IMG/VR virus record: IMGVR_UViG_3300028802_000186
Coordinates: 1 to 56,476 of that record
Reading direction: 5' to 3' (one strand)
Length of the DNA stretch: 56,476 nt
DNA from: a virus
Taxonomy: Duplodnaviria > Caudoviricetes
In this document: positions 133 to 54,991 of the stretch, in pieces
How the letters are laid out: each line of letters opens with the position of its first letter
Numbering within the stretch: the first letter of the stretch is position 1
Program-made: the position numbers and the translations under genes
Notes under the pieces: generated by a model
Told to the model about the DNA's origin: nothing
The model's database searches: none
The model's input: only the letters and a program-made list of their open reading frames with translations

Positions 133-3100
133 GTGAAGGACCGCTTCCAGCCTGCGGCGGCACCGTCCGGCCCGGCCGCCTTGAAGCCCTCCGCGCCGCT
201 TGCGCCCGGCACTGCCGCGCACGTGCAGCACGCCAACGCCGTCGCCAACCGGACGGCACCCAAGGCGCAGATGTCGAAGACGCAGGTCGACTCGTACGGC
301 ACGCTGTCCAAGGCCGACTTCGACCAGCTCGCTCCGGCCGCGCAGAAGACGATCCGGGACGACCTGGCCAACGCCAAGGGCAAGTTCCTCGACCCGAAGA
401 AGCGGCAGGCCGCACAGGATCTCCTCGATCGTTTTGGATCGAGGCACCCCGCTTCGGCCGCTCCCGGGCCGTCCGCGACACCTGCCAGCCCAGCCCACCC
501 CAAGGGCTACAGCGACCCGATGAGCGAAGTCATCAAAGCTGCGCAGGGTGGCGACAACGGCAAATTCCTCCAGACGGTCGCCCGCATCTCCCCGGCCACC
601 GCCGCCAATTTCGACAACGGCGACCGCAAACAGATCCTCGCCCACCTCGACTTCATCGCCAGCCACCCGAAGGCCACCGACGAGCAGAAGGCGAAGGCGT
701 CCGCGTACGGCCGGATCTTCGGTGGGGGCACCCACGTGCCCGCCGCAACGAAGTTCGACCACACCCCGTCGATCGGAGAACTGCACACCGAGGAGCAGAA
801 GGGCGGCCACGCCGCCGCATTCGACGCCCTCAAGGCCGCCGACGATACGTCGATGCCGCGCGCCGATCGGATGAAGGCGCTCACCGCGCTGGACAAGGCC
901 CAGTTCGACGCCCTCGCCCCCGACGAGCAGCGCAAGATCACTGACGCACTGCACGTGCTGCACACCGACCAGAAGGGCACGACCGGCGGGATCACCCTGG
1001 ACAAGGCGGCCGGGCTGGCTATTGAGCGGCTGACCGGGGTGCGGCCGGGCCTGCACCGGCTGAGGCAGGCCGAAGCCGACTTCCGGGCCGGGAAGATCGA
1101 CGCCAAACAGTTCTGGGCCCAGCTTCTCCGCGCCCGGGTCCAGGACCCCGGATCCAGCCACACCCCCGGATCGGCCGGGGCCCTCCTCGAAAAGGAGGCC
1201 GCCCGGGTCGCACGGGACAACCCGACCCTGCCGCTGTGGCTGCGCGCCTCCATGATCGAGAACCCGTACAACGCCATAGGGCGCACCTACAATGCCGTCG
1301 CCATGGCAAGCATGGAGCACACCTGGGAGCCCGCCCCCCGGCTGTCAGGCAGCGACATCACAGCTATCTTCGGCCCCACCGTCGACGACCTCGCCGCCGC
1401 CGACCCGATCCACGCCGAGGCGATCAAGGCGCTGCGCGGGCACCTCATCGAAACCGGCCTGAAGGGTGACCCCGGCGTTCCCACCGGGAGCCCCTGGTCT
1501 CTCGCCACCCGCAACCATGTGGTGGACAACCTCCTGGGGATCTCCAGCGTCAGCCCGGAGGTCCCCGCCGAACGGCTGGCCGAATACAACGCCCTGCCGC
1601 ATGGTCAGCAGGCGCTGGTCCGCAAGGTGCTCCGCGAGCGCCTCGACAGCCAGACCAGCGATCATGCGAAGACTGGCACCTGGCTTGCCCTGCGCGAACT
1701 GGAGGGCCGCGCACCCCTTTCCCCGGAGCAGCGGGACGCCGCCATGGCCGCAACCGACAGCTTCCCCCGGTCCGGCGCGGACGACACCTACCGCAAGCTG
1801 CTCATCGCGGAGTTCGACGAGCTGCCCACGTACACCCGGGCCGCGATCCGCGCCAACCTGCTCCAGTTTCAGACGCGCGCCGAGCGCAGCGGCCCCGTCC
1901 GTACCTGGGGCGCCTCCGATAACCCGCTGGAGGTGTTCCCCGGTGCGCTCGCCGACCACCTGGCCGGGGTGCGCACCTTCTACGCGGATCGTCGCCTGCG
2001 TAACGCGTCGGACATCGCCAACTTCGGCACGAAGATCATCAACCCGTTCGACCGGACCCGGGCATACGAAGAGGTGCCGATCGGCCTCTTCCGCAACATG
2101 CCCCTGGGCGATCAGGCCCTGATCAACGACGACCTGGACAAGATCGCAGCCGACACGGCCAACCCCCTGCAAATCCGGTACGGCGCGCAGGTCGCCAGGG
2201 ACGTGCTGCTCAACACGCCCGCCCACATCAACACCCCGCAGCTCGTCGCCCTCAAGAAGGCCGACCCCCGACCCGGCCGCGAATCGTCCGACGCCGACGT
2301 GATCGGTGCGCTCGGCTACCTCGACAAGAGCGACTACGACAAGCTCAACAAGACGTACCGCGAGGCCATCGACGCGCGGATTGCGGCGCTGCCCGGCGCC
2401 GTGCAGCAGGCCATGACCGCCAAGTACCACCCGGCCGCCCCTGCAGCGACCCCCGCCGGGTACACGCCGACGACAGTGCAGGCGAACGTGCCGCCGCACG
2501 TGCAGGCCGCCCTGGACACCATCTACGGCGTCCACAAGTCCGGCAAGTCGCACACCATGGCCCACCAGCTGTCCACCTACGGGGCGCTACGCGGGTCCGA
2601 CTTCAGCCAGCTCAACGCGCAGGAGCAGGGCCACCTGCTCGGTGATCTGTCGTTCATCGCGACCACCGCCAAGGGGCCGTCCGCCGACAAGGCCCGCAAG
2701 TTGATCGACCGGTTCACCCCGGCTGGTACGCCGTCTGGGCAGGTGCCGACCGGCGCGGTCATCCCCCCGGCCAACGCCGTGCCCGGCCAGGTCCGCTACG
2801 CCACCCCGCTGAAGGGCCTGGAGCAGGCGAAGGACTCCGGCAAGTCCGGTGACGGCTGGATCTCCCTGCCGGGCGGCGGGCGGGTGTGGGGCGCGCACGG
2901 CGCGGCCGGTCTGCTGCTGCAGCACGTCGATCCGCAGACCGGCGAGAAGCGCTACCTGATGGTGCAGCGCGGCCCGGCCATCTCCGACCCGGGCAAGTGG
3001 ACGTTCCCCGGCGGCGCCAGCGACTCGAAGGAGACCCCGCACCAGGGCGCAGCCCGCGAGACGATCGAGGAGCTGGGCCTCAAGGCCGACGCCCTGAAGG

Positions 3101-4167
3101 ACGCCCTGGTCCACGGCGACCACACGTTCTCGGTGCCGAACCACTCGTGGAAGTACACGACGGTGGCCGCCCAGGTCCCGACGATGATCAAGCCGAACCT
3201 GACCACCGCCCACGCCCGCGCCGAAACGTCGGACGCGAAGTGGATGACGATCGATGAGATCCGCGCTCTCGACAAGAGCGGCCAGCTGCACGGCCCCATC
3301 GCAGGCGGCAAGCTGGAGCAGAACGTCATCTCCCTGTACCCGCAGGGCACCGGCCAGACACTGGGCCAGGTCGCCCGGCCCGGCCCCGTCACCAAGCGTC
3401 CGGGGCGGCTCCGCCTGCCGTCCGCCGGTCGCCAGGCGCCCGCCACGTTCAACGCGTGGCCGCACGCCCACAAGCCCTCGAAGGGCAAGGACCTCATCCC
3501 CGACAAGGCCGCCTTCGACGCCCAGCGGCAGAAGATCAAGCAGGACCGCAAGCTGTACGACGGCAAGACCGCCGACGGCCGCCTCGCCGCCATCGGAGCC
3601 CAGCAGGGATTCGACGACACCCCCACCGTCGTGGACCGCAAGGAGATCGATCGGCTCCTGGCCACCGGCGACTACATCGAGGCGTGGCGCGGCGTGTCCG
3701 GCGCCGGTGGCTGGTCGGCGCGCTCCCGGGGCGGCTCTGGCGGAAAGACCGCCGCCGACATCAACGAGGAGATGCGCACCGGCCCCGCCTACTACGGCAA
3801 GGGCATCTTCGGCAACGGCTACTACCTGGCCACTCAGAAGCGGGTGGCTGAGCAGTACTCCGACCACACCCACGGCTCCGTGGTGCGCATCCTCATCCCG
3901 AAGAGCGCCGTCACCCAGAAGTACGACAAGGTGTCGAAGGAGTCCCACGCCAACCCCCGGATGTCGAAGGCCAAGGGCGGCGGCTACGACGTCAGCACCT
4001 TCTACGACCCGGGTCGGTACGCCGCCGCGAAGGGCCTCGACGGTATCGAGATCAACGCGCACCACAGGTCCCCGAGCGGCGGCGCCGCGCACGTGGCGTC
4101 CAGCGGCAAGCCTGCCTTCAACTGGCTGAACCGCTCCGTGTTGATCCTCCAGAAGGAGCCCGCATGA
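1..4167 (+). CDS. 3' part of giant (~1839 aa) head-module protein with helical repeats, Nudix hydrolase and C-terminal ART-like domain; true start at 54992 across the junction
   Basis: Frame is continuous with the open frame 54992-56476; canonical Nudix box G-ASDSK-E-TPHQGAA-RETIEELG at 3013-3078; C-terminal AWRGV...GIFGNGYY...AEQYS pattern. Confidence 0.85.
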   Translation, partial: FVHRQMTKGQFDSLDDATQKKVLDDLDHQIANGSGARTKQLAQDVKDRFQPAAAPSGPAALKPSAPLAPGTAAHVQHANAVANRTAPKAQMSKTQVDSYGTLSKADFDQLAPAAQKTIRDDLANAKGKFLDPKKRQAAQDLLDRFGSRHPASAAPGPSATPASPAHPKGYSDPMSEVIKAAQGGDNGKFLQTVARISPATAANFDNGDRKQILAHLDFIASHPKATDEQKAKASAYGRIFGGGTHVPAATKFDHTPSIGELHTEEQKGGHAAAFDALKAADDTSMPRADRMKALTALDKAQFDALAPDEQRKITDALHVLHTDQKGTTGGITLDKAAGLAIERLTGVRPGLHRLRQAEADFRAGKIDAKQFWAQLLRARVQDPGSSHTPGSAGALLEKEAARVARDNPTLPLWLRASMIENPYNAIGRTYNAVAMASMEHTWEPAPRLSGSDITAIFGPTVDDLAAADPIHAEAIKALRGHLIETGLKGDPGVPTGSPWSLATRNHVVDNLLGISSVSPEVPAERLAEYNALPHGQQALVRKVLRERLDSQTSDHAKTGTWLALRELEGRAPLSPEQRDAAMAATDSFPRSGADDTYRKLLIAEFDELPTYTRAAIRANLLQFQTRAERSGPVRTWGASDNPLEVFPGALADHLAGVRTFYADRRLRNASDIANFGTKIINPFDRTRAYEEVPIGLFRNMPLGDQALINDDLDKIAADTANPLQIRYGAQVARDVLLNTPAHINTPQLVALKKADPRPGRESSDADVIGALGYLDKSDYDKLNKTYREAIDARIAALPGAVQQAMTAKYHPAAPAATPAGYTPTTVQANVPPHVQAALDTIYGVHKSGKSHTMAHQLSTYGALRGSDFSQLNAQEQGHLLGDLSFIATTAKGPSADKARKLIDRFTPAGTPSGQVPTGAVIPPANAVPGQVRYATPLKGLEQAKDSGKSGDGWISLPGGGRVWGAHGAAGLLLQHVDPQTGEKRYLMVQRGPAISDPGKWTFPGGASDSKETPHQGAARETIEELGLKADALKDALVHGDHTFSVPNHSWKYTTVAAQVPTMIKPNLTTAHARAETSDAKWMTIDEIRALDKSGQLHGPIAGGKLEQNVISLYPQGTGQTLGQVARPGPVTKRPGRLRLPSAGRQAPATFNAWPHAHKPSKGKDLIPDKAAFDAQRQKIKQDRKLYDGKTADGRLAAIGAQQGFDDTPTVVDRKEIDRLLATGDYIEAWRGVSGAGGWSARSRGGSGGKTAADINEEMRTGPAYYGKGIFGNGYYLATQKRVAEQYSDHTHGSVVRILIPKSAVTQKYDKVSKESHANPRMSKAKGGGYDVSTFYDPGRYAAAKGLDGIEINAHHRSPSGGAAHVASSGKPAFNWLNRSVLILQKEPA

Positions 4168-4397
4168 ACCCCGTAGGCCAGCTGTTCCACCGCCTCGGCG
4201 AGGCTCTCGGGAGCGTTGACGTGCAGCCCGATGAGCGCGATCAGATCCTCACCGCATGGACGGCGGCGGGCGGCGAAGACGGGGCCACCTGGGAGAAGCT
4301 GCCGCTCGGCATCCAGCACCTGGTGACGCAGATCGAGGGGCGCCCCCGGCAGTCGTGGGACGACCCGGCCGACCTGCCGGACCAGAAGGGCCTGTAG
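4164..4397 (+). CDS. Small hypothetical protein translationally coupled to the giant gene
   Basis: ATGA overlap with upstream stop; 77 aa. Confidence 0.7.
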   Translation: MNPVGQLFHRLGEALGSVDVQPDERDQILTAWTAAGGEDGATWEKLPLGIQHLVTQIEGRPRQSWDDPADLPDQKGL

Positions 4398-54803: not shown

Positions 54804-54954
54804 TCCGTGCGACGAGGAGACCTGGTCGTGGTGGCACTTCACCCCGAGCCAGCTCGACCCGTACTGGATCCGGTGCGCCCTGACGCTGCCGCACGACCGG
54901 CACGAGGACGAGAACACGGGGCTCCGGTGGACCACCGAGGACGAGACGCTGTGA
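54793..54954 (+). CDS. Small hypothetical protein
   Basis: 53-aa ORF filling gap; C...C...H..H. Confidence 0.4.
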   Translation: MFGDPCDEETWSWWHFTPSQLDPYWIRCALTLPHDRHEDENTGLRWTTEDETL

Positions 54955-54991
54955 CCGCTGAAGATCAAAAACGATCCCGTATGCTCAGCCC

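Follow-up and report, generated by a model that had tools for sequence, protein, structure and literature searches.

Short conserved words that are dispersed over a whole replicon and bound by a protein are known from few phage and plasmid systems, such as the stoperators of Cluster A actinobacteriophages and the KorB operators of plasmid RK2. The repressor sites of phiC31 are another example. Here we describe a dispersed word, GATCVAAAAY, in the IMG/VR virus record IMGVR_UViG_3300028802_000186 (Duplodnaviria; Caudoviricetes). The window that we analyzed, 56,476 bases long, is the entire record; it is rated 99% complete, has a G+C content of 68.5%, and is the whole genome of an uncultured actinophage-like siphovirus. 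We tentatively favor the reading, which may well be right, that the copies of this word bind a sequence-specific protein encoded by the phage itself, most likely the ParB-fold product of the gene at 37893-38780.

ParB-fold proteins spread from parS sites or Noc-binding sites (NBS), which are 16-bp and 14-bp palindromes, respectively, clustered near the origin or spread over the chromosome. The KorB operator, OB, is a palindrome as well, and RK2 also encodes the ParA partner IncC and the clamp-lock protein KorA. Stoperators follow the direction of transcription, are mostly intergenic, and serve the immunity repressor of a temperate phage, which also controls the early lytic promoter. The start-associated sequences (SAS) of Cluster K phages represent a conserved short word just upstream of many actinobacteriophage gene starts; the SAS includes the ribosome-binding site, and its orientation is always that of the gene. 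KorB is described as a ParB-family CTP-dependent sliding clamp that silences promoters from 16-bp operators lying 4 to 10 bp or 45 to more than 1000 bp upstream of the target promoters (PMC11790492). For the Cluster A stoperators, the cited accounts give asymmetric sites of about 13 to 16 bp at some 20 to 30 places, with one copy in the promoter (PMC9283540, PMC6550527). The word described here fits neither the ParB/KorB nor the stoperator family exactly; by analogy, it would work most like a KorB-type set of dispersed operators or loading sites.

The initial annotation of the window had reported 18 copies of GATCVAAAAY, and each of them proved to be an exact match with the right coordinate and strand, 10 on the plus strand and 8 on the minus strand. 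Dinucleotide shuffles gave an expectation of 0.11 copies and a maximum of 1 (0 of 100 shuffles reached 18), and the reversed pattern, which we used as a control, has 0 copies in the window. A weight-matrix scan added five near matches, at 12814, 16165, 41377, 49316, and 51058, among them the two that had been suspected at about 41377 and 51058; under a third-order Markov null, 50 runs averaged 0.82 matches and never exceeded 3. It had been proposed that the enrichment might disappear under a codon or Markov background, but it persisted under Markov, codon-usage, and synonymous-shuffle nulls. The codon-usage model predicts about 0.11 genic sites per genome. In 500 within-gene synonymous-codon shuffles, the total dropped from 18 to 6.74 on average and 12 at most, counts that include the five intergenic sites left untouched by this procedure. 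The top six over-represented 9-mers of the genome are all pieces of the motif. Chance or a codon artifact as the source of the motif was ruled out by these shuffle, Markov, and codon-aware nulls. Gene calls, site clusters, and null models were produced with purpose-made scripts.

For a sequence logo, we pooled the sites of the window with those of 12 complete relatives, 223 in total, and grouped them by flank similarity into 100 clusters. The logo reads C-A-(A/T)-G-A-T-C-(G/A/c)-A-A-A-A-C-G-A-T, with G in 57 to 64% of the sites at the variable position and the final T (+12) in only about half (45 to 52%). The arms ATCG and CGAT form a partial dyad around an invariant A4 center. The motif is nevertheless strongly asymmetric, with CA(A/T) on one side only and a C at +13 in just 21 to 33% of the sites. 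The two-half-site pattern GATC-N6-GAT, first seen in several copies, holds more widely, with GAT at +10 to +12 in most sites. Beyond the core there is a weaker element, G-A-T-G, at +18 to +21, and one strand carries three GAT words, at 0, +10, and +18. The GATG element persists in 71 site clusters without a nearby gene start.

The motif has a cost in codons. Rare codons and KIEND-type peptides had been noted in unrelated genes, and peptides of the form I-E/K/Q-N do recur in such genes. Sense copies inside genes always lie in the frame xxG-ATC-NAA-AAC, which forces GAA (19% of Glu codons), AAA (6% of Lys codons), or CAA (4% of Gln codons), and antisense copies force TTT (3% of Phe codons) and GAT (12% of Asp codons). 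A peptide motif was ruled out because the identical DNA word is found in noncoding DNA and in antisense frames. A frameshift signal, for which ATC AAA AAC resembles a slippery run, was ruled out as well, since the G variant lacks the run and noncoding and antisense sites exist. Selection on the motif acts at the DNA level and is strong enough to override codon usage.

We searched a viral collection with the capsid protein, which returned 31 related loci, and the records of 22 were examined for the motif. The 13 near-complete members of the clade have 13 to 20 copies each and fragments have proportionally fewer, with 0 copies of the reversed-pattern controls, whereas three distant records, with capsid proteins 36 to 43% identical, have 1, 1, and 0 copies. 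The ParB-like protein led to eight further records, in which its copy is 48 to 57% identical and which all carry the unchanged motif; four of them are at least 94% complete and have 17 to 22 copies. The motif was not found in the cultured relatives Kozie, phiAsp2, YungMoney, Twister6, and Hendrix. These relatives are related genomes and not independent samples. To guard against ascertainment bias, the conservation count started from the 18 sites of the window and scored whatever aligned in each relative. The sites are conserved in related phages, a check that the initial annotation had suggested: of 131 alignable places in 12 relatives, 96 (73%) retain an intact motif, compared with 5007 of 28141 (17.8%) for identical flanking 10-mers in the same alignments. 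A 15-mer scan of the viral collection gave at least 118 stretches, mostly single matches as expected by chance, and no other motif-bearing clade was revealed among the matches listed. A literature string search with four 10-mers listed matches in unrelated uses (primers), which is insufficient to call the motif unpublished.

Conservation differs from site to site. The site GATCCAAAAC at 431-440 (minus strand) is antisense in the giant gene described below and is kept in 3 of 5 alignable relatives. The sense sites at 5274-5283 (plus; gene 4600-6627, peptide KIEND) and 16770-16779 (plus; gene 16669-17019) are kept in 7 of 7 and 12 of 12, respectively, and the sense site at 9300-9309 (minus), at the 3' end of the glycosyltransferase-like gene 9279-10289(-), is kept in 3 of 3. 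At 14064-14073 (plus; sense in gene 13576-14268, peptide KIENG; kept in 8 of 12), the losses in relatives are single synonymous-type changes. The tape-measure gene has a sense site at 21076-21085 (plus; kept in 3 of 12) and an antisense site at 21527-21536 (minus; kept in 11 of 12). The AAAAT variant at 29149-29158 (minus), antisense in gene 28888-29241, is kept in 8 of 9; the site at 43019-43028 (plus), sense in terL (peptide MIENN) and 831 bp from the site at the terL start, in 12 of 12; and the site at 53295-53304 (plus), sense in the MuF-like head morphogenesis gene, in 7 of 12. The sense site at 25132-25141 (plus), in the tail gene 24248-25390, is kept in only 1 of 12. Other relatives read GATCCAGAAC or similar there, and the aligned sequences indicate a young site, present in two genomes only and made by a synonymous change of CAG to CAA. 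There are also sites found in relatives only, such as tape-measure position 20743, which is occupied in 8 genomes and not in the window. From the young site and the relative-only sites, it follows that sites come and go at a steady number per genome, the 13 genomes having 100 flank clusters between them.

The remaining copies lie in or near gaps between genes. The site at 30577-30586 (minus) is in the convergent intergenic gap 30568-30692, and that at 47447-47456 (minus) is in a tRNA-rich noncoding stretch. Three others adjoin a Shine-Dalgarno (SD) sequence: the site at 31591-31600 (minus), at the 3' end of the HNH gene, precedes the SD of gene 31199-31573(-) by 1 nt; the reverse complement of the intergenic site at 33348-33357 (plus) is 2 nt upstream of the SD of gene 32870-33334(-); and the site at 39967-39976 (plus), at the 3' end of gene 39755-40000, is 3 nt upstream of the SD of gene 39993-40388. 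The near match GATCGAAATC at 41377-41386 (plus), with a weight-matrix score of 22.3, is inside terS. The last two sites, at 42188-42197 (minus) and 54963-54972 (plus), are at promoters and are treated below.

By placement, 37.7 of the 100 site clusters are intergenic (random expectation, 9), 50.7 are sense in genes (45), 8.8 are antisense in genes (45), and 2.8 are at gene edges (2); unweighted, the genic sites comprise 127 sense and 35 antisense copies. It had been claimed that orientation is independent of transcription. This is true of the intergenic sites, which between codirectional genes point forward in 16.8 and in reverse in 20.5 clusters (cluster weighted), but not of the genic sites, which are mostly sense. 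The genic bias is explained by codon usage alone, since the sense share is 85% observed against 88% predicted by the codon model, which also predicts the frame. Like the stoperators bound by the L5 gp71-type repressor, the sites are asymmetric and dispersed across an actinobacteriophage genome; unlike stoperators, they have an unbiased intergenic orientation, and half of them are inside genes. No strand skew along the replicon of the Chi or KOPS-like kind was seen, the order of sites being mixed once transcription direction is set aside.

Two sites coincide with candidate promoters. The open reading frames (ORFs) 54992-56476 and 1-4167 belong to a single giant gene that the ends of the record interrupt. 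The gene has about 1,883 codons if the record ends abut, and it is uninterrupted in relatives, with 1,570 to 1,836 residues. The giant gene encodes a NUDIX domain, has divergent N-termini in relatives, and lies between the MuF-like gene and a capsid protease or scaffold gene; its product is probably a virion-borne protein. The initial annotation had placed two copies of the motif against the terL and giant-gene promoters. That holds for 42188 (terL) and 54963 (giant gene), while the ORF at 54992 is not terL. We found four conserved leaderless promoter candidates (TANNNT, 6 to 7 nt, and ATG, with no ribosome-binding site), at 32613(-), 42198, 49855, and 54992; those at 32613(-) and 49855(+) are without the motif. 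In the candidate giant-gene promoter (54963-54994, plus), the motif at 54963-54972 is followed by 7 nt, TATGCT at 54980-54985, 6 nt, and the ATG at 54992. All 13 genomes have the arrangement motif-N6/7-TANNNT-N6/7-ATG ahead of the giant gene despite the differing N-termini, with the 10-base core at about -29 to -20. In the candidate terL promoter core (42186-42200, plus), a -10 hexamer TAGTTT (42186-42191) is followed by TCGATC and the ATG at 42198, and the site fills positions -10 to -1 of the terL start. The core is followed here by T-A in place of the usual G-A, and this change gives rise to the TANNNT hexamer. In 9 of 13 genomes, the motif in reverse complement directly adjoins the ATG, reading TAGTTTtcgatcATG. 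One relative (G006) has no motif at terL and keeps TAGCTTgatcacATG. Judged by their sequence, the stretches 54980-54994 and 42186-42200 resemble actinobacterial leaderless sigma-A-type promoters, and a protein bound at either site would touch or exclude RNA polymerase.

The early part of the genome is free of the motif. An exact and near-match scan found no site in 33358-39966, including the divergent early region, and there is none from -4.5 to +2.0 kb around the ParB-like gene, in the early replication/regulation module, in 13 of 13 genomes. This also differs from stoperators: here the early promoter region has no site, and the promoters that overlap with a site are those of the giant gene and terL. 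The divergent early control region itself, 37303-37470, between 36955-37302(-) and 37471-37896(+), has a TTGACA-type -35 word.

The best candidate for the binder is encoded in the early rightward operon. The gene at 37893-38780 (plus) encodes a putative orphan ParB/Noc/KorB-fold protein of 295 residues, with an invariant S-G-x-R-R box (S52, G53, R55, and R56), an arginine-rich linker, and a conserved helix-turn-helix (HTH)-like stretch, FGIS-x-ATARR. Its AlphaFold (AF2) model has a mean predicted local distance difference test (pLDDT) score of 87, and Foldseek matched the model to pNOB8 ParB, Noc, CTP-bound ParB, KorB, and Spo0J over 220 to 276 columns with E values of 4.5e-6 to 1.6e-3. On the model, the protein appears to have the N-terminal GxRR domain followed by an HTH that marks the ParB fold. 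It has 195 homologues, and among the 120 matches listed, none falls below 52% identity. The 13 complete records that bear the motif all encode the protein, and the complete outgroup G016, without the motif, does not. No homologue was found in 50,697 cultured phage records, and plasmids gave one weak match to the N domain. Besides the replication initiator and terS, no other recognizable site-specific DNA binder was found in the phage. The next gene, 38777-39562 (plus), encodes a second ParB-superfamily protein, of the DUF6551 family with a DGQHR box. Phage fusions of ParB-fold and DUF6551 domains are reported to bind ATP, and the same source calls the roles of orphan phage ParB-fold proteins mostly unknown (PMC12704722). 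For the product of 36955-37302, a resemblance to winged-helix or excisionase-type binders was considered and rejected, since a Pfam search with 25 homologues gave only coiled-coil noise. No DNA-binding family was found for it, and its model is of low confidence (pLDDT, 57).

The favored reading would work as follows. The motif would be a double-stranded recognition site for the phage's own sequence-specific DNA-binding protein, most likely the orphan ParB/Noc/KorB-fold protein. With about 18 sites some 3 kb apart in either orientation, the protein could load over the whole genome, and where it sits on the core promoters of the giant gene (-29 to -20) and terL (-10 to -1), it would set late-gene transcription, in the way that KorB controls promoters from dispersed operators on RK2. 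We infer binding by a protein, the identity of the binder, its spread outward along the DNA, and the direction in which it would shift promoter activity. KorB sites, as described, are likewise of about 16 bp and dispersed over a replicon of about 60 kb, some by core promoters and others far from any (PMC11790492). The likeness extends to a ParB-family binder, here a candidate with KorB chains among its structural matches, and to a role that would be global gene control; on our side, the comparison draws on sequence and a structural model. It differs in the asymmetric site, in that no ParA was found, in that no site lies at the candidate's gene, and in that the phage is apparently lytic. The motif also shares with parS and NBS the multiple loading sites and a ParB-fold HTH protein (again, a candidate here, with Noc and ParB as top structural matches), but its sequence is unrelated and asymmetric, and its sites cover the phage genome evenly. 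A more elaborate version, possible but doubtful, is that the evenly spaced array serves as loading sites for an orphan clamp of the ParB-CTPase fold that coats the replicating genome from about 18 points and also times the late release of the leaderless terL and giant-gene promoters by copy number, because each new genome copy adds 18 sites.

Several points weigh against a ParB-like binder. The earlier proposal of parS-like or genome-coating sites for such a protein gained from the finding that a ParB-fold protein is encoded and codistributed with the motif, and lost from the lack of a ParA match and the nonpalindromic site, which leaves it plausible but unproven. The motif is not a palindrome of the parS type, and known ParB, Noc, and KorB sites are palindromes. 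The Foldseek TM-scores are low (0.22 to 0.35), as hinged two-domain proteins would lead one to expect. At least 12 other genes, including those for terS, terL, Erf, the HNH nuclease, the DUF6551 protein, and the 36955-37302 product, share the distribution of the ParB-like gene (15 of 15 ingroup genomes and no outgroup match), and the co-occurrence of gene and motif is what clade membership alone would give. No site is near the ParB-like gene or the early divergent promoters, so self-regulation of the KorB kind is not seen. A ParA-type ATPase was not found with AAA_31 (PF13614), the sole ParA family searched, in six frames at E values up to 1. Finally, a genome-wide role draws support from site spacing, which in 12 of 13 genomes is more regular than under random placement (coefficient of variation, 0.46 to 0.79, against about 0.92), but individually with P<0.05 in only 3 of 13, and the genomes are related.

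Other readings were weighed on the same evidence. The sites may be operators of a different phage regulator, a temporal repressor or activator of the late promoters, with the intragenic copies as extra operators or titrating decoys and the late genes switching on as copy number rises. The place of the sites in core promoters, which recurs in 13 of 13 genomes for the giant gene and in 9 of 13 for terL, agrees with this, and the strong asymmetry fits a monomeric two-domain repressor, as described for Cluster A phages (PMC9283540). Small clade-specific proteins encoded in 15 of 15 genomes (36955-37302, 39755-40000, 39993-40388, 44083-44355(-), and 44717-45070) could supply such a regulator, but they match no DNA-binding family in Pfam, PHROGs, or NCBIfam, and the recognizable promoters hold only 2 of the about 18 sites. 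We also considered a phage-specific sigma factor, WhiB, or CI-type regulator; searches of the phage for a CI-type HTH (HTH_3, PF01381), sigma region 4, and WhiB found none. A temperate lifestyle was rejected, given the absence of tyrosine and serine recombinase matches in the window (PF00589 and PF00239) together with that of an AAA_31 ParA match. Thus, no integrase, resolvase, partition ATPase, or CI-type HTH, which would be in keeping with a stoperator system, was found here. A different regulator is, on balance, unlikely, though a serious contender. Packaging marks, by which terS and terL would tell phage from host DNA and start headful packaging at many places, are much less probable. In their favor, terS and terL are clade specific (15 of 15 ingroup genomes and no outgroup match), terL is among the most conserved proteins (77 to 84% identity), copies or near copies at 41377, 42188, and 43019 flank terS and terL, and the motif is missing from the sampled host genomes. 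However, the terS/terL cluster is no denser than that at 29149-31591, the fixed geometry of the giant-gene promoter is left unexplained, and we know of no phage that uses many dispersed pac sites. A search with terL yielded relatives only about 35% identical, which are uninformative on packaging mode.

A host protein recruited by the phage, such as a nucleoid-associated or regulatory factor, would explain why the motif is unchanged while phage proteins have diverged to about 50% identity, as fits a slowly evolving partner, and the A-tract suggests shape readout. The initial annotation had named host-factor sites as an option, but the 13-mer CAWGATCVAAAAC, which matches 12 of the 18 window sites, gave no regulon-sized set: there are 0 to 6 copies in each of 301 sampled actinomycete genomes of the same class (any copy in 78 of 301) and 3 copies in a 10.8-Mb Umezawaea metagenome-assembled genome that carries a contig with a 73%-identical capsid protein. 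We regard this reading as improbable, although these counts are not decisive. To about the same degree we doubt that the motif is a target of site-specific DNA chemistry, either a T5-like strand nick or a base modification. The sites are dispersed, conserved, and roughly even in spacing, and the phage encodes an HNH nuclease (15 of 15), the DGQHR-type ParB-superfamily protein, two glycosyltransferase-like proteins, and Macro and NUDIX domains. Known nick systems, however, are strand specific, and here the sites are on both strands, 10 plus and 8 minus; moreover, no methyltransferase was found, and a modification target needs no over-representation. There is only a slight chance that the motif works at the level of RNA or translation, similar to the Cluster K SAS, or as a one-direction promoter element. 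Like the SAS, it is a short conserved word just upstream of some gene starts: about a third of the site clusters (about 33 of 100, with the start at +19 to +30, that is, 19 to 30 nt past the motif) lie 10 to 20 nt upstream of a same-strand start, usually 1 to 4 nt before the ribosome-binding site. SD-like words are most frequent at +15 (24% versus 1.5%) and ATG is most frequent at +19 (19% versus 1%), and AACGAT at +7 to +12 followed by ATG six bases on mimics the local leaderless promoter geometry. Against this, others of the clusters are reversed or deep in genes, unlike the SAS, and ribosome-binding sites are preceded in both orientations, with 12.5 clusters, about an eighth, reversed. Intergenic orientation is unbiased, antisense genic sites are conserved (21527 in 11 of 12 and 29149 in 8 of 9), and both the weak T at +12 and the GATG that persists away from gene starts speak against such a role. 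The median intergenic gap is 54 nt, and in gaps so short any inserted word is forced beside the ribosome-binding site. We read this adjacency as tolerance, with no translational role, and the motif acts on DNA rather than RNA.

The rest of the window fits a siphovirus. It encodes a siphovirus-type structural gene set, with terS (41306-42034), terL (42198-43655, plus), portal (50159-52114), MuF-like head morphogenesis protein (52495-53910), major capsid protein (10394-12274), and tape measure (20549-22951), and its early region encodes Erf, the replication initiator, the HNH nuclease, and the two ParB-superfamily proteins. The capsid protein is 36 to 39% identical to the capsids of Microbacterium, Gordonia, and Actinoplanes phages, and no match to the window at the nucleotide level was found among the 50,697 cultured phage records.

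Some further observations concern the hosts, the outgroups, and the gene content. In G324 and G080, two of the 301 actinomycete assemblies, the 13-mer is present in 6 and 5 copies, respectively, most of which lie on small contigs. Phages of this clade may have been binned with these assemblies, which would give a lead to the host. The motif-less outgroups G016 and G021 (loci L228-L230 and L242-L243) have an over-represented word of their own, GTTAAGTGTCAA, with 6 to 7 copies against about 0.05 expected; its reverse complement contains TTGACA, and the copies may be promoters. Four tRNA genes are clustered at 45673-47735 (Rfam). For the one at 45943-46014, ARAGORN gives the anticodon CTA, which would read the amber codon, so that this is a possible suppressor tRNA; of the 78 called genes whose stop codon lies in the window, 9 end in TAG, and in the relative G014 the ParB-like ORF has one in-frame TAG. 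A Macro-domain protein is encoded at 48616-49245 (E value, 4.5e-37), and the two glycosyltransferase-like proteins are encoded at 9279-10289(-) and 53907-54803. For the latter, the PHROG label "DNA methyltransferase" was rejected, since Pfam and NCBIfam gave nothing and its Atlas neighbors are viral glycosyltransferases. Together with the NUDIX domain, these proteins hint at ADP-ribose or glycosylation chemistry. A neprosin-family peptidase-like gene (40429-41223; Pfam E value, 5.5e-15) and a 663-residue pectate-lyase-like tail gene (17682-19673) have counterparts in 0 of 15 ingroup genomes and are likely recent acquisitions.

The motif unites a clear signature, selection that overrides codon usage, orientation independence, and a fixed place in two candidate leaderless promoters. 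It would be a further case of a dispersed protein-binding word, from a clade of soil and rhizosphere phages that is large and has no cultured member, and in which each of two clade-specific proteins has more than 180 homologues. It is also a practical marker for recognizing members of this clade in metagenomes. The case raises the question of whether the orphan proteins of ParB fold in phages serve to regulate or coat whole genomes. If the more elaborate version, with clamp and copy-number timing, is true, ParB-family biology would be used here for genome-wide control or protection of a phage and not for partition.

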